This document shows positions 3,050 to 14,750 of a DNA stretch of 15,997 bases, one piece after another. Below the pieces are notes generated by a model. The model made no database searches, was not told the origin of the DNA, and saw only the letters and a list, made by a program, of their open reading frames with translations. The stretch is from a virus. Lineage: Duplodnaviria; Heunggongvirae; Uroviricota; Caudoviricetes. Numbering within the stretch: the first letter of the stretch is position 1; every line of letters starts with the position of its first letter. Position numbers and translations under genes: made by a program. Location of the stretch: the IMG/VR virus record IMGVR_UViG_2545824717_000014; one strand, given 5' to 3'.

Positions 3050-3496
3050 ATGAACATCGAAAAAAGCAGATTAATTTCTGAGGCCGCCCCTCATCTGAAC
3101 GCCTCTCTGGGCACAATTAACGGTAATGAATTTGCCGCAATTGTCCCGGTTATTTCTGGTCATATAGGCGGGCGGGAAACCAATATTGTTAGCGCAAAAG
3201 CGTTACACAAAGCGTTGGGCGTGGGAAAAGACTTCTCTACATGGATCACTGATCGCATCTCTGAATATGACTTCACCATTGGGCACGATTACTCAGTCCA
3301 TAAAACAATTTCCCCAAATTTGGGGAAAAGCCCGAATGACGCGGCTTACAGCAAGATTAAGCAGTCTGGCAGACCCGGCAAAGACTATCTGTTAAGTGTC
3401 GGAATGGCGAAAGAACTGGCAATGATCGAACGCAATGATCAGGGTCGCGCTAACGATGCCCGTGCAGAGCTGGTAATTCTTGGTGGTGAAAAATGA
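3050..3496 (+). CDS. Phage antirepressor-like protein (AntA/Rha-type N-terminal domain), 148 aa
   Basis: The segment SAKALHKALGVGKDFSTWITDRISEYDFTIGHDY resembles the N-terminal domain of AntA/Rha/Bro-type phage regulatory proteins. GGAG-like RBS precedes the ATG. Confidence 0.5.
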   Translation: MNIEKSRLISEAAPHLNASLGTINGNEFAAIVPVISGHIGGRETNIVSAKALHKALGVGKDFSTWITDRISEYDFTIGHDYSVHKTISPNLGKSPNDAAYSKIKQSGRPGKDYLLSVGMAKELAMIERNDQGRANDARAELVILGGEK

Positions 3497-4581: not shown

Positions 4582-6933
4582 ATGCGAAACATTGATCTTA
4601 TCCGTCAGGTTATCAGTGCGTCTGAAAACAACTGGCCTCATGTGCTGGACTGCCTGAACATAAATGTCCCTGACTCTCCGCGCCGTCATGCTCCCTGCCC
4701 TGCATGTGGGGGCAAAGATCGATTCCGGTTCGATGACAACGGGCGCGGTAGCTTCATCTGTAATCAGTGCGGCGCTGGTGATGGGCTGGATTTAATTAAA
4801 CGCGTAAATAACTGCGACACAACAGAGGCGGCGCTTCTTGCCGCTGATGTTCTGGGTATTGATTACCGGACAACGGAAACACCAGAAGCCACCAGCCAGA
4901 AACGGGAACAACTGGAAACCGAGCGCCAGCGACGCGAACAGGAGCGCCTGAAAAGGGCAGAGAAGGACGAACAACAAAGACGGGATACGTTTTCCCGTCA
5001 GTTTGATGACATGCGCAGAAAGGCTGTAAACGGCAAATCTGATTATCTGGTTGCGAAAGGGGTAGGTGATTTTACATTCCCTGTGTTGCCCGATGGATCT
5101 CTGTTGCTGGCGCTGGTGGATAAATCCGGCGCAGTCACAGCAGCACAGACTATTACCTCACATGGTGAAAAAAGACTCCTGACAGGTTCAGCAAAGCGAG
5201 GGGCATATCACGCCATAAACGCACAGAAACGACCTCACAGCATCATAATTGCTGAGGGGGTGGCTACCGCCCTGTCGTGCCATTTAATTCGCCCTGACGC
5301 AATGACAGTGGCAGCAATCGACGCTGGCAACCTGTTGCCAGTAGCGGAAGTCATGCGCAGAACATATCCACAGGCACAAATCATCATTGCCGCAGATAAC
5401 GATCACCAGCAAGGAAACTCCGAAAGTGGAGGGATCAACACGGGGAAAGATGCCGCAGAGAGGGCCGCTATTTCCGTAGCTGGCTGGGTGTCTCTGCCAC
5501 CGACTGACTATAAAGCCGACTGGAACGACTATCACCAACAACACGGGCTGGCGGCAGCCACAGCAGCATTTAAAGATTCGATGTACCAGCCACGGGGGAA
5601 AGGGGCGCAGGTGAAAAATCACAAACAGTCAGTCGGGGCGCTGAATGAGATCAGTTCTGGCGAGGTGTTAAGCGATGATGAAATTGCTGTCCTCGAAGAA
5701 ATCAACCGGACGTTTACGCATGTCACCATCGGCGGGAAACACAAGGTGGTGTCGCTAAAGCCTTCTCAAACCGGCGGTGTATCGCACGTTTTCGAGGATT
5801 TATCACAATTTCAGCATTATTTTCATCATAAACCGAGAGTCGCCAGAAAGCTGGCGGGATCGGCGTGGCTGTCATGGAGTGGGAAGAACTACAAGCCAGG
5901 AGGCGTAGGATTTTATCCAGTACCAGACAAATGCCCTGACGATGTTTTTAATCTGTATGAGGGGCTGGCACTGGAACCAATTGAAGGAGATTGCACGGTA
6001 TACCTTAATCACCTGTTGCAGGTTGTCTGTGCCGGTAATGAAGAGGCATACCAATATCTTATCCAGTGGATGGCGCACATTATCCAAAAGCCTGATGAAA
6101 AACCGTCCGTGGCAATCGTGATGAAATCTGTCCCGGGCACAGGGAAAGGCACAACGGTTAAACCGCTGCTGCAAATACTGGGGCAGTACGCCGCCCACAT
6201 TAACGGGGCGGGACATATTTCAGGGCGCTTCAATTCAATACTTGCTAACAAGCTACTGGTATTTGCTGACGAAGTGACGATCCACAAGCCGTCTGAAGCT
6301 GACAGACTTAAAGCGATTATTAGCGAACCGACGTTTAACCTTGAGCGCAAGGGAATTGATGCTGAACCAATGCCGAATTTTGCCCGGTTGATATTTGCCA
6401 GTAACAGCACACAGGTATTACAGGCAGGGATAAGAGAGCGCCGCTATCTCGTGCTTGAGCCATCTCCTGAAAAAGCACAGAGCCGGGAGTATTTTGATCG
6501 GCTGTACAGTTGGCTTAATGATGGCGGTGCCGCAAAGTTGCTTTGGCATCTTAAAGGGGTGGATCTCTCAGGTTTTGACCCTCAACGAGCGCCACAGACC
6601 GATGCCTTACGTGAAGAAATCTTGCTGGGGCTGTCTGGCGTTGAATTGTTTCTTTATGGCGAGCTAATCAATGAACCTCCGTTTAATGGCGAAGTCCGTT
6701 TGTTTGCAAAGGATATGGTTAGTCGATTTGTAGCGTGGTCGCTTGAGCGTGGGGAAAAGCTTAAAGAACCAGCTGCCAGATCACTACTGGGTAAATCACT
6801 TGCACAAATGGGGCTGGTGAAGCATGGAAGACCAGACCGAGGGAATGGCGTGTTCTACGAACTACCAGAGGTCGGAGTTCTACAGGCTGCGTTTGCCCGT
6901 CTGATCGGTATGGGGGGTTATGATGTTTTTTAA
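4582..6933 (+). CDS. Primase-helicase, P4 alpha-like (zinc-ribbon + TOPRIM primase + P-loop NTPase), 783 aa
   Basis: N-terminal CPAC...CNQC zinc ribbon; TOPRIM motifs (IIIAEGVATA with the conserved Glu, IIIAADNDH DxD box); C-terminal P-loop-like VPGTGKGT and Walker B LLVFADEV. Size and architecture match satellite/plasmid primase-helicases (P4 alpha is of similar length). Confidence 0.9.
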   Translation: MRNIDLIRQVISASENNWPHVLDCLNINVPDSPRRHAPCPACGGKDRFRFDDNGRGSFICNQCGAGDGLDLIKRVNNCDTTEAALLAADVLGIDYRTTETPEATSQKREQLETERQRREQERLKRAEKDEQQRRDTFSRQFDDMRRKAVNGKSDYLVAKGVGDFTFPVLPDGSLLLALVDKSGAVTAAQTITSHGEKRLLTGSAKRGAYHAINAQKRPHSIIIAEGVATALSCHLIRPDAMTVAAIDAGNLLPVAEVMRRTYPQAQIIIAADNDHQQGNSESGGINTGKDAAERAAISVAGWVSLPPTDYKADWNDYHQQHGLAAATAAFKDSMYQPRGKGAQVKNHKQSVGALNEISSGEVLSDDEIAVLEEINRTFTHVTIGGKHKVVSLKPSQTGGVSHVFEDLSQFQHYFHHKPRVARKLAGSAWLSWSGKNYKPGGVGFYPVPDKCPDDVFNLYEGLALEPIEGDCTVYLNHLLQVVCAGNEEAYQYLIQWMAHIIQKPDEKPSVAIVMKSVPGTGKGTTVKPLLQILGQYAAHINGAGHISGRFNSILANKLLVFADEVTIHKPSEADRLKAIISEPTFNLERKGIDAEPMPNFARLIFASNSTQVLQAGIRERRYLVLEPSPEKAQSREYFDRLYSWLNDGGAAKLLWHLKGVDLSGFDPQRAPQTDALREEILLGLSGVELFLYGELINEPPFNGEVRLFAKDMVSRFVAWSLERGEKLKEPAARSLLGKSLAQMGLVKHGRPDRGNGVFYELPEVGVLQAAFARLIGMGGYDVF

Positions 6934-6963
6934 TATAGTCTTTTTACAAGAAGATCGTTTTTA

Positions 6964-7066
6964 CCTGTACCACCTATACCACTTTGCTAATTCAGCATTA
7001 AAAACAATGCGTTATAGTGGTACAGGTCAATATCTTACCTATACCAGACCTGTACCACCTATACCA
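6964..7066. repeat. Iteron cluster 1: CCTGTACCACCTATACCA direct copies at 6964-6981 and 7049-7066 plus an inverted partial copy (TGGTACAGG, 7018-7026)
   Basis: Read directly from the sequence immediately downstream of the primase-helicase gene; candidate replication origin. Confidence 0.7.
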
Positions 7067-7109
7067 TTAACAAACGCATTTCTTCTGGCTGGCTGAGAGG
7101 GAACAACCA

Positions 7110-7340
7110 ATGATGAGCACACCATTTTACAAAGTGCGCCAGTTAGCTTCTTCCTCTGGCTGGCAGCTACGGTTTGAGGGGCGTTCAGACTGGCTACCCA
7201 TTGCGGCATGGGCGAATGTTGAAATGTGTATTGACGGCGATACCGTTGAAATCATTATTCCCTGCGTGGCAAGTCGGGACGGCTGTATAGAGCCAACAGA
7301 TATGGCAGCAGAAATCAGAGAGGTAAAACATGAACAATAA
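7110..7340 (+). CDS. Hypothetical protein, 76 aa
   Basis: ORF with a GAGG-like RBS, located between the two iteron clusters. Confidence 0.45.
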   Translation: MMSTPFYKVRQLASSSGWQLRFEGRSDWLPIAAWANVEMCIDGDTVEIIIPCVASRDGCIEPTDMAAEIREVKHEQ

Positions 7341-8067
7341 CTATTGCATACTGCAGGGAATGACCAGAACGGAGCGCGAAGAATTAAAAAGTTTCGCTAC
7401 ACAGTGCGGGAATGCTGGCGACATCCAAAGTCTGGAACGCACTTTAATTATGATTGCGCACTGGATGCGCCAGGGGCAAAGAGTTTCATTTACTGAATAT
7501 GCCAGCCAGTGGACAGAGGCACAGCGCGAACGGAGCGACGGTAATCACTCAACACCCGAAATGGCGAAGCAATGGCCTTTCAGTGGTAAACGCTGTATCA
7601 GTCCCGGTGGTTCAGATTATTACCCTGCTGGTGTGGGAGATGAGCCATGTTGTGACGAGACTGAAATCCGCCACGCAGTGACAGTAATTACCGCTGAATA
7701 CCCACAATTTAACCTTGACGGACTGGCGCTCCACAACCGGAATGCGGACTGGGAAAACCCGCTTGATAACCCGTCATTTATCGTATCGGCGAAAAGCTGC
7801 CTGAGATGGATCAGAGACAACGGGATGAGTAATGCCCAGATTGAGAGCTTCCCGCAGGATAACCCCACATCTGACACGTTGAAGCATGAAGTGGAGCGAT
7901 ATAACCAGATAAACCACCAGCACAGTGATCACCCGCACTATATCCCCAACGGAGCATTTATTGCGGCGATGGTGGCAAGCGGCTACAAGGTTAAGCCAGC
8001 GGGAAGAATGAACGCATTTTTCAATATTTCAAAAAAGGGATTATGTGCTGCTATGGGTAAAAATTAA
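7330..8067 (+). CDS. Hypothetical protein, 245 aa
   Basis: GAGGT RBS 7-8 nt upstream of the ATG; 11-nt overlap with the upstream gene; no motif recognised. Confidence 0.6.
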   Translation: MNNNYCILQGMTRTEREELKSFATQCGNAGDIQSLERTLIMIAHWMRQGQRVSFTEYASQWTEAQRERSDGNHSTPEMAKQWPFSGKRCISPGGSDYYPAGVGDEPCCDETEIRHAVTVITAEYPQFNLDGLALHNRNADWENPLDNPSFIVSAKSCLRWIRDNGMSNAQIESFPQDNPTSDTLKHEVERYNQINHQHSDHPHYIPNGAFIAAMVASGYKVKPAGRMNAFFNISKKGLCAAMGKN

Positions 8068-8073
8068 ATAAAT

Positions 8074-8176
8074 GGTACAGGTCTGTACAGGTGGGGAGAG
8101 GTCATTTTTACCCACCTGTACCACCTGCAGGCCGCGCCACACAAGGGTTTGTGACATGGTGGTACAGGTGGTACAG
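8074..8176. repeat. Iteron cluster 2: GGTACAGG/CCTGTACC copies at 8074-8081, 8085-8092, 8115-8122 (inverted), 8161-8168 and 8170-8176
   Basis: Same core octamer as cluster 1, in both orientations, ~1.1 kb downstream of cluster 1; resembles the paired ori/crr arrangement of P4-type replicons. Confidence 0.7.
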
Positions 8177-8670
8177 CAAAAACAGCGATTTTCTTTATAA
8201 GGTATGTTTTGCTCATCTGGCAGACGGAGGTATTCGCTGCGGTTTGGCACATAGCCCAGAACAGCAAAGAGTTTTACGAGACTTTTGTAAAATCCAGTGT
8301 ACAAGGGCGTGACGTTTTTGAAGGTGAGCACTACGAAATTTTCGTAGTTCAAAAAATAGCCTCTGAGATGTTGTTATGCCTGTTCAGCAAACCATCCGCA
8401 TAGCTGATCGCGAATCAAATTACCAATGGAGCCAGAAGCAAGGGCAGAACTGGAAAGCGCCTGCCGTGAAGAGTAATGCGACTCCATAAATATAGTTTTT
8501 AGAGTCCATAAAAAAACTGTCAAAACCTGACATACAGAACGATGCCACCAGCTACTGAACGGTGGCATTTTTTTGTGCTATTTGTTTCATATTTTGCAAT
8601 CACAATGATGAATGTTGCGTTTTATGAAACTATAATGACTGTTGTTTTATACAGTTCTAAGGGGGGCGTT

Positions 8671-8844
8671 ATGGCTATTTCAGTAAAGCCAGTATTGATA
8701 AGTGAGAAGCAAATGGAAGCGATAAAGAAAATTCAGGAGGAGCAGCGTAAAAAATCAGAGGTAGGAGTTGCGCCAACGATCCACGAAATTGCTCGGGGAT
8801 TAATGGATAAGGCGCTGGCTTACACTTTAACTGGACGTGGGTAA
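8671..8844 (+). CDS. Small protein, 57 aa, possible ribbon-helix-helix DNA-binding protein; first gene of the cargo operon
   Basis: Start chosen at ATG 8671, preceded by the G-rich RBS AAGGGGGG; a -10-like TATAAT lies ~40 bp upstream. The pattern ISVKPVLISEKQMEAIKKI ... IHEIARGLMDKAL is compatible with an RHH fold (weak, by eye). Stop is directly adjacent to the next gene. Confidence 0.45.
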   Translation: MAISVKPVLISEKQMEAIKKIQEEQRKKSEVGVAPTIHEIARGLMDKALAYTLTGRG

Positions 8845-8848
8845 ATTT

Positions 8849-10192
8849 ATGGCTACGTGGCAACAGGGTATTAATTCTGGTGGTTTTCTGGCTGGCATCG
8901 GTGCGCAAAATGAGAATGCGCCAAAGGCAAGCGACATTAACGCAACGCTTGGTCTGATCCGCGAAAACAATGAACTGGCTCCCTCAGGTGCAAATAACGT
9001 TGCTCTGACAGGTCTTCGTGGTCTGGCTGGAGTTGCTGACATTTATAAGCAGCAGCAACAGCAGGAACGTAAAGCGGCATTCCAGAAAGGTTATGCAGAT
9101 GCTTATGCGTCCGGTGACAGGGAGCAGATGCGTAATCTTATTACAGCATTCCCAGAAGAGTTTGAGGAAGTCCGTAAAGGGATGAGTTATGTCGATGATG
9201 CTCAAAGGGATGATTATGGCAATCTGGCGCTCAAAGCACAGGTAGCCTCATCGCTTGGTCAGGGCGCATTTGGCAGGTTCATGATGGATAATGAGCAGGA
9301 GATGCGTCGTTTAGGTATCCCTCCAGAAACTATTGCTGAAATGCAGGTTAATGACCCGCAGGGCTTCCAGCATTTCGCAGGTAATCTGGCGCTGTTTTCT
9401 CTCGGTCATGAGAAGTATTTCGATATCAAAGATCAAATGGAAGGTCGTCGACTTGAGCAAGGGCGACTGGATGAAAGTATGCGTCAGGCTGACATGGAGA
9501 ACGCGAGAGGATGGGCAAATATCCAGAACGCTCAACTAGACAGGGCTCAGCGAGCACAAATTCACTCAGATGAGATGGGATTGAAGCTAATGGAGCTGGG
9601 GCAAAAAGGTAAGCCGTCAGCAGACTTAATTAAGGGATTAAATTCTGACATTACCAATTTTGGCAAAAATTATAACTCTGTCAGAGCGGCGGCAAACTCT
9701 CTGCAAGCCCTTAGCAAGGTAAATACTGGCGCTGCCCAACTTGGGATTATCTTCAACTACATGAAATCTCTTGACCCGCAGTCAGTCGTTCGTGAAGGCG
9801 AACAGGTTCAGGTAATGCGGTCTGATGGCATATGGGGACAAATCAAAGGATACATAGACCAGCTTAATGCTGGAAACGGCCTGTCGCAGGAGGCAAAGGA
9901 TAACATTGTTAACGCCGCAAAAATCAACGCCAATGCTATGGGGCAGCAGTTTAACCAGCAGGTTGACGAGTATCTCGATACATATGGAGAAACTATTCCT
10001 CAGGGGCTAAGAAAAAGCCTTGAAAGAAGGAAAGCGAAGCTATTTGACGATGTTTCCGGGCAGCCTACATCACAGGCTGGCACTGGACAGGCAAAAGCGG
10101 CAACCGGAGGAATATCAGAAGGCGCAACGGCAACCAACCCTAAAACTGGTCAGAAAATCATTTACAGGAACGGAAAATGGCAGCAAATGTAA
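8849..10192 (+). CDS. Hypothetical protein, 447 aa, Q/A/N/G-rich and predicted largely helical; no recognisable catalytic motif (alternative GTG start at 8837)
   Basis: Long ORF whose 3' end overlaps the next gene by 16 nt. Contains a short poly-Gln run (KQQQQQERK) and many amphipathic-looking segments. Confidence 0.7.
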   Translation: MATWQQGINSGGFLAGIGAQNENAPKASDINATLGLIRENNELAPSGANNVALTGLRGLAGVADIYKQQQQQERKAAFQKGYADAYASGDREQMRNLITAFPEEFEEVRKGMSYVDDAQRDDYGNLALKAQVASSLGQGAFGRFMMDNEQEMRRLGIPPETIAEMQVNDPQGFQHFAGNLALFSLGHEKYFDIKDQMEGRRLEQGRLDESMRQADMENARGWANIQNAQLDRAQRAQIHSDEMGLKLMELGQKGKPSADLIKGLNSDITNFGKNYNSVRAAANSLQALSKVNTGAAQLGIIFNYMKSLDPQSVVREGEQVQVMRSDGIWGQIKGYIDQLNAGNGLSQEAKDNIVNAAKINANAMGQQFNQQVDEYLDTYGETIPQGLRKSLERRKAKLFDDVSGQPTSQAGTGQAKAATGGISEGATATNPKTGQKIIYRNGKWQQM

Positions 10193-12294
10193 TCTTACCG
10201 GAAGGTTTTGTGCTCGATGAACAACCTGATAACTCACAGTTTCCTGATAGTTCACAGCTTCCTGATGGTTTTGTGCTTGATGCCCAACCAGAACAGCAGC
10301 AATCACCTTTGGTTTCACCAGAGGAAAATTCCAGACAGGAAAATGTTGTTAATAATGCTAACGGTTTCGACCGTTTTATGTATGGCGTTCTCAGTGGATT
10401 GATGGATGTTGGTAAAGGTGTTGGCCTGTTTCAGGATATGACACCAGAAGAGCAAGCCGCAATTCAGTCTCTACAGCAGAAGTTAGCGGCAAAACCATCA
10501 ACCGCACAAGATGTTGGTGAGTTCGTTGGACAAGCAGCGCCATTTGTTAGTGGTGGTGGGATTATTTCTCAGGTTCCCAAAGGGGCGGCAAGACTGGCTG
10601 CCGCCGCAGGGCTTGGTGCTGGAGAAGGGGCTATTGTAGCCAATGGAACAAATAGCGATGTTGCTTCCGGCGCTGCTATTGGCGCTGTGGCTGGCCCTGT
10701 AGCCGAACTTGCTGGCCCTGCAATTAATAAAATAGCTGGGAAATTAACCAAGAAGAATGTTTCTTCGATTCCAGATATTGAGGGGATTACTCCTGCCGAA
10801 GAGAAAATTCGTAAGTTATCTGCACAAGGCAACCCAAATCTTGCCTCTTCGCTTGAAGGGCTAGATCTAAAACCTCAGAAAGAAATTGTTGAGGCTGCAA
10901 ATAGGCTTCATGTTGATTCAGTTCTTCCTTCTCATTTATCAGGAAATGAGCAATACCAAGCTGTAGAGCAAGCCCTAAAGTCACGGACAGGATCAGCGTT
11001 AAAAGCTCAAGAAGATAAAGCAATAAGCGAATTAGCCTCTAGTGCTGGCAAGATAATCGATGATGTTGCTGGTGCGCCAGATGCGTTAGCTATGAGCGAA
11101 AAATATATTTATCAGATAAATAGTAGAATGGAAGCACTAAAAAACCGTAGTGATCAGTTATATAAACGTGTTGATTCCGCTCTATCACCAAGAACAAAAG
11201 TCGAAGCAAATAACACAAGCACTATGCTGGAAAAAATCGCTGATGATTTAGGAGGGTGGGATAATCTTGACCCAATAGAAAAGCGAGTTTTTACAGCAAT
11301 AAACCCCGGCCCAGATAGCATCCTAACGTATGCAAATTTAAACAGGCAAAGGCGTTTAGTTGGTGATGCCCTAAATAAAAAGCAGGGGCCATACAAAGAT
11401 GCTGATAAAGAAGCGCTATCAAGACTATATGGAGCTTTAGCTGAAGACCAAAAATCTGTCTTATCCAATACTGGATACTTGCGAGATTTCGAAGTCGCAC
11501 AACGCCTTGTAGCTATGAGAAAAAACTTAGAAAGGCAAATGGTAAATCTTCGCGGGAAAACACTTAATGGGGATATAGCGTATAAAGTAACGAATTCTCT
11601 TCAATCTATGGCAAAAGGTGATGCGAGAGGGTTTCGTGAGATTATGCAAAATACTCCATCAAGAACATTGCGAAGGGAGCTAGTAGGAACAGCATTAAGA
11701 GATATGCTTTCCTCTGGGAAGCGTGGGGCCGACTTTAATCCATCTGGCTTCGCAGATTGGTGGCAAAACTTGCAACACAGTGGACAGCTAAAGACTTTGG
11801 CTGAACATTTGCCAAAAGAAACAATGAGCGGACTATATGATGTATACAAAGTTGCCAGAGCAATAAAAAATGCTAAAGCGCATGAAATATCTACTGGTAA
11901 GCTGAATGAGTTTGTAAACAGATTTAATCGGGTAACAGCTCCATACGAACTAGCAGCAAAACACATTCAAAAAATAGGCACGATGGTAGGCGCTCATTTT
12001 GGATCGCTTGGAGCCATTGCTGGGGCTGATATTGGAGCAAGATTGGCGAGTAAAGCTCGATTAGCTGGTGGAGCAGGGGCGGCTGATGCTGCGGATAAAT
12101 TAATTGCCTCGCCAGCCTTCCAGAGCGCAGTAAAAAATCTACACGGAAAAGCGCCTGGGCACATTGTTGATTCACGTATCAGGCGCTCCCCTCAATGGAA
12201 GAGTTTTTTTAACTCTCTTCCTGAACAGGAAAAACGGACCATCGCCAGACTGGGCATCATTACTTGGCTATCTAATGATCCAGATAATGACTAG
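10177..12294 (+). CDS. Hypothetical protein, 705 aa, with N-terminal tandem repeat (PEGFVLDEQP / PDGFVLDAQP) and Gly/Ala-rich hydrophobic segments near both ends
   Basis: ATG with AGGA RBS ~9 nt upstream; start overlaps the stop of the 447-aa gene. G/A-rich stretches (AAAAGLGAGEGAIVANG...AIGAVAGPVAELAGPAI; IGTMVGAHFGSLGAIAGADIGARL...AGGAGAA). No P-loop, nuclease or protease motif identified by eye. Confidence 0.75.
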   Translation: MAANVILPEGFVLDEQPDNSQFPDSSQLPDGFVLDAQPEQQQSPLVSPEENSRQENVVNNANGFDRFMYGVLSGLMDVGKGVGLFQDMTPEEQAAIQSLQQKLAAKPSTAQDVGEFVGQAAPFVSGGGIISQVPKGAARLAAAAGLGAGEGAIVANGTNSDVASGAAIGAVAGPVAELAGPAINKIAGKLTKKNVSSIPDIEGITPAEEKIRKLSAQGNPNLASSLEGLDLKPQKEIVEAANRLHVDSVLPSHLSGNEQYQAVEQALKSRTGSALKAQEDKAISELASSAGKIIDDVAGAPDALAMSEKYIYQINSRMEALKNRSDQLYKRVDSALSPRTKVEANNTSTMLEKIADDLGGWDNLDPIEKRVFTAINPGPDSILTYANLNRQRRLVGDALNKKQGPYKDADKEALSRLYGALAEDQKSVLSNTGYLRDFEVAQRLVAMRKNLERQMVNLRGKTLNGDIAYKVTNSLQSMAKGDARGFREIMQNTPSRTLRRELVGTALRDMLSSGKRGADFNPSGFADWWQNLQHSGQLKTLAEHLPKETMSGLYDVYKVARAIKNAKAHEISTGKLNEFVNRFNRVTAPYELAAKHIQKIGTMVGAHFGSLGAIAGADIGARLASKARLAGGAGAADAADKLIASPAFQSAVKNLHGKAPGHIVDSRIRRSPQWKSFFNSLPEQEKRTIARLGIITWLSNDPDND

Positions 12295-13394: not shown

Positions 13395-13473
13395 TCCTGA
13401 TCCTCACCTATCGTCACCACCTGCTGGTGTATAAAGGTATTGGCCCAAGCAGCTTTCTAATGGGCACTCATGT

Positions 13474-13929
13474 TTATACGCTGACCTTACAATCAATCAC
13501 CGCTTTTAACTTTTCAGCATTGCTTCCCTGACGCTTCCACGCGCTGTAAATATCTTTATCCCACGCTTTACCAGCTTTTGTTTGATAGCCTGCTTCATTG
13601 ATCCGTTCAGCTATCACACGCCCATTATCAAATCCCTGTCGGATGGTATCGGCAATGATCTTTATAACTGCCGTTTCGTTATATGGCTTTGGTGGGATGT
13701 TCGGCTTTCCGGCAATAAGCGACGCAGCGGCTTTTTCCATGCGCTCCACCAGCCCAAGCATTCGTGAATCAATAGACTTTTCCGGCTGTCCCAGCTTCAT
13801 GCGAATCGCATCAACAAGCCAGGAGGTTTTATCCCCTCCAGAAGCGAGAACAGACCGATTAAACTCATCCTGCAATTCAGATGGGATGCGGAACGCGACC
13901 AGATTAGATTTGCTCATTGCAAAGACCAT
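13474..13929 (-). CDS. Putative ribbon-helix-helix DNA-binding regulator, 151 aa (alternative start at 13917); no RBS, possibly leaderless
   Basis: N-terminal LVAFRIPSELQDEFNRSV...TSWLVDAIRMKL fits a beta-strand/helix/helix RHH (Arc/CopG-like) pattern. Divergent from the PerC-like gene across a palindrome/iteron-rich region. Confidence 0.55.
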   Translation of the reverse strand: MVFAMSKSNLVAFRIPSELQDEFNRSVLASGGDKTSWLVDAIRMKLGQPEKSIDSRMLGLVERMEKAAASLIAGKPNIPPKPYNETAVIKIIADTIRQGFDNGRVIAERINEAGYQTKAGKAWDKDIYSAWKRQGSNAEKLKAVIDCKVSV

Positions 13930-13946
13930 ATCAGTGAGTAATATCC

Positions 13947-13978
13947 ATACAGTATACCACTGTATAACACTGTTATAC
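13947..13978. promoter_or_regulatory. Overlapping palindromes ATACAGT-N5-ACTGTAT (13947-13965) and GTATAACA-C-TGTTATAC (13962-13978); operator-like
   Basis: Perfect inverted repeats read directly from the sequence, located just upstream (minus-strand sense) of the RHH-like gene start. Confidence 0.5.
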
Positions 13979-14030
13979 GCTCAAATATCAACCAGAAAAT
14001 AACGGACCAATCACAAAGCTATCGCTGTGT

Positions 14031-14152
14031 TGTTGGTTCAGAGCTGGACTGTGTTGGTTCAAAATGAGTTGATGTTGGTTCAATATTTCTGAAAAAACAC
14101 AATAAAAACAACGATCTTTACAAATTGAACCAACTGAACCAACTGAACCAAC
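14031..14152. repeat. Iteron array: TGTTGGTTCA x3 direct at 21-bp phasing (14031-14040, 14052-14061, 14073-14082), AT-rich spacer, then TGAACCAAC x3 in tight tandem on the opposite orientation (14126-14152)
   Basis: Read directly from the sequence; lies directly upstream of a -10-like TATATAAT (14168-14175) and the PerC-like gene. Confidence 0.75.
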
Positions 14153-14188
14153 ACCTTTTTGCTTATCTATATAATCTGAGAGGCAGAA

Positions 14189-14476
14189 ATGATAAGGGAC
14201 AGGAAAGCTGAAGAGCTGGAGTCAAAAGGGCTATACCGGAGAGCTGCCGCACGATGGGCAGAAGTCATGATGCTGGCAGATGGCGATAAAGAACGTGAAC
14301 ATGCAGCAAACAGACGCTCTGAATGTATCCGTAAGGCGGCACGCCAACCAGCAACTACAGACAGATTCGGAGATTTAAGACAGGCAGTTAAGCGGACTCA
14401 TTCGGCTCTTGGTATGGATGAGGAAGCGAGAGGGTACTTCAGGCGTTATCGCGATAAAGATTGCCAGAGACAGTAA
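14189..14476 (+). CDS. PerC-family transcriptional activator-like protein, 95 aa
   Basis: N-terminal KAEELESKGLYRRAAARWAEVM matches the conserved PerC/Pch-type signature as I recall it; GAGAGG RBS upstream. Confidence 0.65.
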   Translation: MIRDRKAEELESKGLYRRAAARWAEVMMLADGDKEREHAANRRSECIRKAARQPATTDRFGDLRQAVKRTHSALGMDEEARGYFRRYRDKDCQRQ

Positions 14477-14750
14477 TGCTCTCTCTGTTTTGGCAAATTA
14501 CCCCTCACTTTGAAGGGATCGGAGCTATAAAAATGGTGTTATCCGGCTTCCTCAAATTTAGGTTTTCGAAAGAATCAATGGGTTAGGTCATCGTGCAAAT
14601 TTGCACTCTGCCAGCCAACGCAATTTCTCGTTGGCGGAAATATCAGGTATTTACTGAACGAACGGTCTACCAGTCTGTTCAGTTACCAGTTGCACATGGC
14701 TGTTTCATGTGAGAACGGAGGTTTTTTCGGACATCGCTATTGGGTACAGC

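Follow-up and report, generated by a model that had tools for sequence, protein, structure and literature searches.

Replication origins of phage satellites

P4-type bipartite origins consist of two iteron clusters, both of which are required in cis and are looped by the initiator, an alpha-type primase-helicase with a C-terminal origin-binding domain. Iteron plasmids possess auxiliary arrays (e.g. P1 incA), i.e. extra origin iterons located outside the main origin; arrays of the P1 incA type contain neither the full origin layout nor the AT-rich spacer, and their initiators are RepA-type proteins rather than primase-helicases. According to the P4 record (X51522), ten type-1 iterons (crr) are located immediately 3' of the alpha gene, six further ones (ori) occupy the region between the divergent ORF88 and sid at a distance of 4.7 kb, and both crr and ori are bound by the alpha primase-helicase. 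For phage-inducible chromosomal islands (PICIs), current descriptions give one origin only, just downstream of pri-rep: in PICIs and SaPIs the origin comprises two iteron sets flanking an AT-rich region, immediately 3' of this gene (Fillol-Salom et al. 2018, PMC6092414), and for Gram-negative PICIs this location was established by experiment in EcCICFT073 (PMC6092414). Another PICI, EcCIMP1, depends for its mobilisation on a helper phage with the Podoviridae-style name vB_EcoP_Kapi1 (Pick et al. 2025, PMC11773190). Origins and iterons are absent from its description, which reports that the PerC-family gene of EcCIMP1 represses the LEE1 promoter in a Citrobacter rodentium reporter (PMC11773190). 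In the literature that we searched (on EcCIMP1 and on PICI iterons), neither a second, distal array in a PICI nor the orphaning of such an array by cassette exchange was described.

An EcCIMP1-like island between yicC and dinD

The DNA analysed here is a stretch of 15,997 nucleotides (hereafter "the window"). It is a PICI of E. coli, located between yicC and dinD, and a relative of EcCIMP1. We call it a PICI, and specifically an EcCIMP1-like one, because of its gene content: an integrase, an AlpA-like regulator, pri-rep, P22-type DNA-ejection genes, three small leftward genes and, in the last position, perC. The integrase, AlpA, an antirepressor, ash, the primase, P22-type DNA-transfer genes and a terminal PerC-family gene are common to the window and EcCIMP1, which belong to the same island family, whereas the position at yicC-dinD and the DUF5906-type Rep cassette distinguish the window's island from EcCIMP1. 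The island of strain ABU 83972 (L003) is EcCIMP1-like by synteny (proA/tRNA-Thr side, then MarR-vat, then yagU).

Based on comparisons of sequences, we regard it as probable that the region upstream of perC is composed of two unrelated modules, namely a palindromic operator and a leftover of a DUF927-type origin that is not cognate to the resident initiator.

The iteron array upstream of perC

The perC side of this region contains the following elements:

14031 to 14082, plus strand: three TGTTGGTTCA iterons, starting at 14031, 14052 and 14073, phased at 21 bp
14083 to 14125, no strand assigned: AT-rich spacer, putative unwinding region, 43 bp, 79% AT versus 54% for the window
14126 to 14153, minus strand: three 9-bp tandem iterons, read as TGAACCAAC on the plus strand, starting at 14126, 14135 and 14144
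14154 to 14176, plus strand: conserved T-rich block CCTTTTTGCTTATCTATATAAT with a -10-like TATAAT at 14170-14175
14189 to 14476, plus strand: perC-family gene, 95 aa, PF06069 (E 1.3e-32), with the Shine-Dalgarno sequence GAGG at 14180-14183

An earlier note, made from the sequence alone, had described three direct repeats at 21-bp phasing, an AT-rich spacer and three tandem inverted copies, and all three descriptions hold: the spacing of TGTTGGTTCA is exact, the spacer measures 43 bp with 79% AT, and TGAACCAAC recurs in a 9-bp tandem, the last copy of which (from 14144) extends to TGAACCAACA and ends at 14153. The label "PerC-like" was likewise well chosen, as PF06069 matches over its full length (residues 1-89 of the protein covered) at 112.3 bits versus a cut-off of 22.6. 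With at most one mismatch allowed, the TGTTGGTTCA 10-mer has nine matches in the window versus 1.27 expected, a number that none of 200 shuffles reached; six of the nine fall in the 123-bp stretch 14031-14153, and at this threshold no second cluster is found elsewhere in the window. In the source-type genome only one place matches the array, and a full-text search of the literature with the iteron string returned unrelated papers only.

The three phased and three tandem inverted iterons around the 43-bp spacer reproduce the layout of a PICI/SaPI origin, i.e. two opposed iteron sets around an AT-rich segment. The position is different: the array starts (14031) 7.1 kb past the end of pri-rep (6933) rather than immediately 3' of it, and forms a second copy towards the opposite end of the island, in the promoter region between divergent genes. 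Nor does the window encode the initiator expected for this array on the same element, its resident Rep being of another specificity class (see below).

A second copy of a DUF927-type origin

The L003 pri-rep product is similar to that of the window over its first 350 residues and then continues with a DUF927 helicase half. An array of GTTGGTTCA iterons begins 24 bp past the stop codon of this gene, three copies in tandem being followed by an AT-rich spacer and then by three more in inverse orientation, and GTTGGTTCA arrays are found 20-40 bp 3' of the DUF927 pri-rep in L003, L021 and L033 alike. The perC-side arrays of both L003 and the window align to the Rep-proximal L003 origin as an inverted, nearly identical copy, and thus we identify the repeats beside perC as a second copy of the origin of a DUF927-type replicon; in the sister islands, the Rep-proximal paralogue occupies the canonical position. 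The earlier note had offered an iteron-type replication origin as one of two readings. It was right about the kind of element, which is an origin paralogue by comparison with L003, but the array is not the origin of the window's own initiator, which adjoins ACCTRTACCA iterons at 6963-7066.

To see which gene the iterons accompany, we compared 17 perC loci from species representatives across Enterobacterales together with several E. coli loci. In all sampled loci that have a pri-rep ORF, an iteron cluster starts 20-40 bp past it. All nine loci (9/9) with GTTGGTTCA beside rep encode full-length DUF927 Reps, 72-100% identical to that of L003, while ACCTRTACCA is found in both DUF5906 loci compared (2/2; the window and L022), and other Rep tails accompany GAGACAACA, ATCCCTAC, CTTGTCCC or ACTGTCTAC. 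As judged by this co-occurrence, iteron type follows Rep type, and not PerC, the integrase or the divergently transcribed gene. The assignment of iterons to Reps is correlative (9/9 and 2/2 loci), and it points to the C-terminal part of the DUF927 Rep, a SaPI-Rep-like helicase, as the presumed cognate binder of the GTTGGTTCA array. The DUF927 half matches PDB 8tch, the solved structure of a "Pathogenicity island protein" helicase (2.5e-11), and in this sequence relationship of its presumed Rep class the array again resembles PICI/SaPI origins.

A separate observation concerns DUF927 Reps that are about 80% identical to one another and use either GTTGGTTCA (L003, L011 and L013) or GAGACAACA (L009, L010 and L012). 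Their extreme C-terminal tails differ, ending in RKSPRIQGRQINVY and GRVREDGRQIRVY, respectively, which makes the extreme C-terminus of Rep a candidate determinant of iteron specificity.

Exchange of the replicon cassette

The resident replicon of the window is made up of the following parts:

4582 to 6933, plus strand: pri-rep primase-helicase, with a P4-alpha-like primase N-terminus and a DUF5906-type C-terminal half
6963 to 7066, no strand assigned: six ACCTRTACCA iterons around an AT-rich stretch, the resident Rep-proximal origin, adjoining the 3' end of pri-rep
8073 to 8169, no strand assigned: three ACCTGTACCA iterons, the second ACCTRTACCA cluster of the resident replicon
5417 to 8419, no strand assigned: exchanged replicon cassette, about 3 kb, delimited by homology to L033, which breaks at about 5416 and resumes at about 8420

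Pri-rep contains a Zn-ribbon primase, a Toprim domain and DUF5906. The primase domains of both PICI Reps (that of the window and the DUF927-type one) are 33% identical to P4 alpha, and the remainder is not alignable. The Reps of the window and L003 are 86% identical over aa 1-350 and unrelated beyond this point according to BLAST, and a tblastn search of the whole window for a DUF927 C-terminal part found none (best E 1.3). ACCTRTACCA has 10 matches in the window versus 0.9 expected.

L033 (strain PKF4) is an island that occupies the same yicC-dinD site and encodes an identical 147-aa leftward protein, but possesses a DUF927 Rep and both GTTGGTTCA arrays. Because homology between the window and L033 is interrupted between about 5416 and about 8420, we conclude that a cassette of about 3 kb was exchanged; the counterpart of window positions 5417-8419 is L033 1731-4273. 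On the left, the exchanged segment begins within pri-rep, past the part for the primase domain (at about residue 280-350), and the window version of the cassette includes the C-terminal half of Rep, both ACCTRTACCA clusters, orf76 and orf245. Since the cassette replaced the C-terminal half of Rep together with the proximal origin, the perC-proximal array has been deprived of a cognate initiator and is therefore most likely a leftover. The DUF5906 cassette is found in 118-129 of 5,426 complete E. coli genomes, nearly always at ≥99% identity and including ETEC such as H10407, and the DUF927 form in 363 of the same 5,426. The two ACCTRTACCA clusters (six copies directly 3' of pri-rep and three at 1.1 kb further) flank orf76 and orf245, and themselves look like a two-part origin.

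Paired arrays and their conservation

Two arrangements of iterons are found among the sampled islands. In L006-L013 they form one contiguous block of 10-12 copies. In other islands they are split into two units of about six iterons separated by kilobases: the GTTGGTTCA units are 6.4-8.4 kb apart in L003, L021 and L033, 8.8 kb in L014, 5.9 kb in L015 and 9 kb in L017, and split units with other iterons are found in L005 (CTTGTCCC, 2.3 kb) and in the window itself (ACCTRTACCA, 6+3, 1.1 kb). The distal unit has a fixed layout, common to Escherichia, Chimaeribacter, Lonsdalea and Pantoea: three iterons phased at 21-22 bp come first, followed by the AT-rich spacer, the three tandem iterons and finally a TTTTTGCTTATnTATA block. 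In Chimaeribacter (L014) the distal unit precedes a gene for a 201-aa protein rather than perC. Alignment A5 of four genera has 26 of 30 invariant columns in the phased iterons and 24 of 27 in the tandem iterons, versus 2 of 22 in the inter-iteron spacer and 0 of 20 upstream. Since the iterons are nearly invariant, the spacers variable, and the array is kept before a gene other than perC, we attribute this pattern to selection for the binding sites of a protein and for the phasing of these sites.

P4 likewise has two clusters of a single iteron at a distance of kilobases, one of them immediately 3' of the gene for the primase-helicase and the second in a regulatory region between divergent genes, and the primase domain is homologous (33% identity). 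A pair of this kind, with one cluster beside the initiator gene, is found in L003, L021, L033, L014, L015, L017 and L005; in the window, only the ACCTRTACCA set (6+3) forms one. The differences from P4 are that the P4 iteron is TGTTCACC, that the helicase and origin-binding halves are not alpha-like in the Reps of the window or of the EcCIMP1 type, and that the window's island has no sid, delta or psu. By eye, the P4-like C-terminal tail motif YLYH.YLA.M could be recognised only in L004, L006 and L008. Judging from layout and sequence, we classify the distal array as a variant of the PICI/SaPI origin and P4 bipartite origin kinds. By analogy with P1 incA-type arrays, the copy in the window could also titrate or handcuff an initiator.

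The fate of the distal array under a non-cognate Rep was followed by comparing Rep type with array integrity in the sampled loci. The array is intact (6/6 iterons) in the window and L024 despite their non-cognate Rep, and also in L023 and L025, islands without any Rep. The DUF5906-type island L032 (10209-10226) has two tandem copies, not three, and twelve sister records (H4-H15), which match 1,192 rather than 1,201 bases, show the same 9-bp shortfall and are probably L032-like. L022 (12115-12165), also of the DUF5906 type, retains two phased iterons, which are joined directly to AATCTGAGAGG before perC; the third one has been lost together with the spacer and the entire tandem set. The loss of iterons in DUF5906 islands fits relaxed constraint, within a small sample of non-cognate islands. 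Intactness in mismatched or Rep-less islands could reflect either the recency of the exchange or a Rep-independent function, and the comparison has low power because the sequences are ≥97% identical.

These data bear on whether the array is a working origin, or a required cis-acting replication site, of the resident DUF5906-type Rep through cross-recognition. The cores of the two iterons (CTGAACCAA and CTGTACCAC) are identical in 7 of 9 positions, which makes a weak recognition by the resident Rep conceivable; both sets have a 9-bp tandem periodicity, and the array retains the full origin architecture with its AT-rich spacer, unimpaired in the window and L024. However, the resident Rep has two ACCTRTACCA clusters of its own inside the exchanged cassette, the C-terminal tails of the Reps are unrelated by BLAST, and among DUF5906 islands L032 manages without one tandem copy and L022 without most of the array. 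On balance we consider a working origin or required site of this kind unlikely.

Returning to the array as a non-cognate leftover, we propose the following scheme. In EcCIMP1-type islands, the perC-side array is the distal member of a pair, whose inverted partner is located directly 3' of pri-rep, 6-9 kb away. In analogy to SaPI and P4 biology, Rep of a cognate island would occupy both arrays, open up the AT-rich spacer, load itself there as the helicase and prime synthesis, and the two arrays might cooperate like P4 ori and crr or regulate copy number. In the lineage of the window, a DUF5906-type unit with its own ACCTRTACCA iterons displaced the C-terminal half of Rep and the proximal origin, and the distal GTTGGTTCA array stayed behind. 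The array in the window would then be replication-inert for the resident Rep and its main role would be that of upstream and promoter DNA for perC (-10 element at 14170); a co-resident PICI of the DUF927 type could bind it in trans.

More tentatively, we suggest as a possibility that a split origin, with the distal unit doubling as the perC promoter and with orphan arrays arising after exchange, is a feature of EcCIMP1-type and other PerC-linked enterobacterial PICIs. About twelve Rep iterons would then be distributed over two origin-like units, which adjoin each other or, like P4 ori and crr, lie apart, with as much as 9 kb of cargo between them. The distal unit would be a Rep-occupied promoter of the terminal accessory gene (perC in E. 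coli), tying its expression to replication of the satellite, and orphan arrays left by cassette exchange could lead to cross-talk between satellites by firing in trans, by titration of the initiator or by incompatibility. A conserved second origin-like array, if true, would revise the view of PICI replication, and would bear on copy-number control and on the coexistence of two satellites. The location of the probable promoter of a PerC-family gene inside a putative Rep-binding array, together with the repression of LEE1 by the PerC-family gene of EcCIMP1, suggests a possible link between satellite induction and virulence regulation. In the window, the mismatch between array and Rep clearly records that satellites swap replicon cassettes as modules. 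In practical terms the benefit is modest: origins and "orphan" iteron arrays of enterobacterial islands could be annotated more accurately.

The leftward gene and its probable operator

The other module is associated with the gene transcribed away from perC:

13474 to 13917, minus strand: gene for a 147-aa protein; start at MSKSNLVAFR by homologue alignment A4, in agreement with the RefSeq annotation
13946 to 13964, no strand assigned: inverted repeat ATACAGT-N5-ACTGTAT, from sequence reading and palindrome scan, kept upstream of the homologous gene in L027
13962 to 13978, no strand assigned: 17-bp palindrome GTATAACA-C-TGTTATAC, from palindrome scan, probable operator of the 147-aa gene

The earlier note had taken the product to be a 151-aa protein, which corresponds to a start at 13929; the ATG at 13917 is the most likely start, as all homologues begin with MSKSNLVAFR. 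The two overlapping palindromes that it reported are indeed present and share 3 nt.

The 147-aa protein belongs to a family widespread at the ends of enterobacterial prophages and islands, and one of its homologues is named "Arc-like" in one source. The label "RHH-like" (ribbon-helix-helix) of the earlier note is a tentative one: Pfam searches gave no match above threshold, and no RHH match to the N-terminal ~45 aa even at E≤10; a match of the C-terminal part to Recombinase/HTH_62 is below threshold (E~0.08), and the sole PHROG match is weak and to a family without an assigned function. Neither a sequence search of the PDB nor a Foldseek search of the PDB with the AF2 model identified a relative (in the latter case, nothing at E<1). 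The AF2 model (mean pLDDT 71) has a low-confidence N-terminus and, after an extended stretch, helices at residues 13-25 and 30-41. An N-terminal strand-helix-helix pattern and a weakly supported recombinase-like HTH at the C-terminus make a DNA-binding function of the predicted protein possible.

The 17-bp palindrome is found 45-60 bp upstream of 147-aa homologues in the Klebsiella-type prophage L027 (with one central base changed) and in the Serratia prophages L029 and L030, with the consensus GTATAACAsTGTTATAC followed by GGTGGTAT(A/T)CT in L027 and Serratia. Its flanks in these Klebsiella-type and Serratia prophages are unrelated and contain no iterons. A 64%-identical homologue from Erwinia has another direct repeat in place of the palindrome. 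A conserved -10-like TATACT is located on the minus strand at 13950-13955, inside the 13946-13964 repeat, and would imply a leader of about 25 nt for the 147-aa gene. No Shine-Dalgarno sequence is visible before this gene, which the earlier note had considered to be possibly leaderless. Since the palindromes travel with the gene into unrelated prophage contexts, comparison of these loci indicates that 13946-13978 is most likely the gene's own promoter-operator, to which the 147-aa protein presumably binds to regulate its own expression.

The other reading in the earlier note was a genetic switch between a repressor and an activator, in which palindromes and iterons together would be operators for mutual control by the 147-aa regulator and PerC. 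The divergent arrangement of the genes, the density of repeats and the operator-like behaviour of the gene-linked palindromes agree with such a switch, and its palindrome part stands, as an operator for the leftward gene. For the iterons it does not: the array has unrelated divergent neighbours in L003 (a 318-aa gene) and L002 (an AlpA-like gene), it tracks Rep type, it is duplicated beside pri-rep, and in L014 it precedes the 201-aa gene, while the 147-aa homologues of Klebsiella-type and Serratia prophages retain the palindrome without any iterons. We would thus give a combined switch little credence.

The perC gene and its probable promoter

The -10-like TATAAT at 14170-14175 is contained in TATATAAT at 14168. 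The earlier note had placed such an element directly against the repeats; it is present, but starts 15-17 bp past the last repeat, i.e. near the array without strictly abutting it. A standard sigma-70 promoter scan of 13400-14700 found no full site, and in a relaxed scan this TATAAT could be paired only with the poor -35 hexamer CCAACA. The block 14154-14176 is the probable core of the perC promoter, without a good -35 element. The same T-rich block is also kept after the distal array of Chimaeribacter L014, ahead of a different gene.

As a further observation, perC-family genes are located 40-1000 bp downstream of the Rep-proximal iteron origin in most of the sampled PICIs (L004-L017, 14 Enterobacterales species), which suggests that transcription of perC usually starts in the origin region or passes through it.

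This proximity, seen in at least 14 of the 17 cross-species loci, is also what would be expected if the iterons were autoregulatory binding sites of PerC. The sequences of PerC argue against it. The PerC proteins of L008 and L012 are 99% identical and are accompanied by ATCCCTAC and GAGACAACA, respectively; those of L006, L009 and L011 are 91-93% identical and have three different iteron types; conversely, the window and L014-L017 have GTTGGTTCA in common with PerC proteins only 42-44% identical. Moreover, no perC follows the Rep-proximal copy in E. coli or the distal copy in L014. PerC autoregulation was rejected on the grounds that PerC identity does not track iteron type, and we regard it as highly improbable. 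Least credible of all are arm-type integrase binding sites on the attR side, suggested by the position of the array near the right end of the island and by the arm repeats in P4 attP, and rejected after comparison of the integrases: identical iterons occur in islands with 29%-identical integrases and different att sites (yicC-dinD and tRNA-Thr) as well as mid-island beside rep, and the array is >320 bp from the end of perC, with the island end further still.

Other features of the island

Compared with the island of strain FDAARGOS_1077 (L001), the window lacks 1,101 bp at 3451/3452, a loss that takes the C-terminal part of an antA/AntB antirepressor, a DUF4222 gene and an ash pseudogene. Positions 8837-12294 are occupied by two P22-type DNA-ejection/injectosome genes, encoding an Inj_translocase (PF16928) and a DNA transfer protein (phrog_770); it is unusual for a satellite to carry virion proteins of this type. 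The minus-strand segment 12314-13394, downstream of the 147-aa gene, contains two small genes, one for a protein of 66 aa (phrog_6324) and one for a membrane protein of 141 aa that matches Bax1-I below threshold. In sister islands this slot contains genes for an Abi family protein (L021) or an ImmA/IrrE peptidase (L024), and it looks like a variable accessory or defence hotspot.

A megablast search of the region against a phage collection gave no match to the repeats and only one match of 52 bp, downstream of perC. This segment (14528-14579) is 96% identical to part of the roi/antirepressor genes of many lambdoid and Stx phages (HK620, H-19B, CUS-3), and may be a recombination scar or an att-related sequence.
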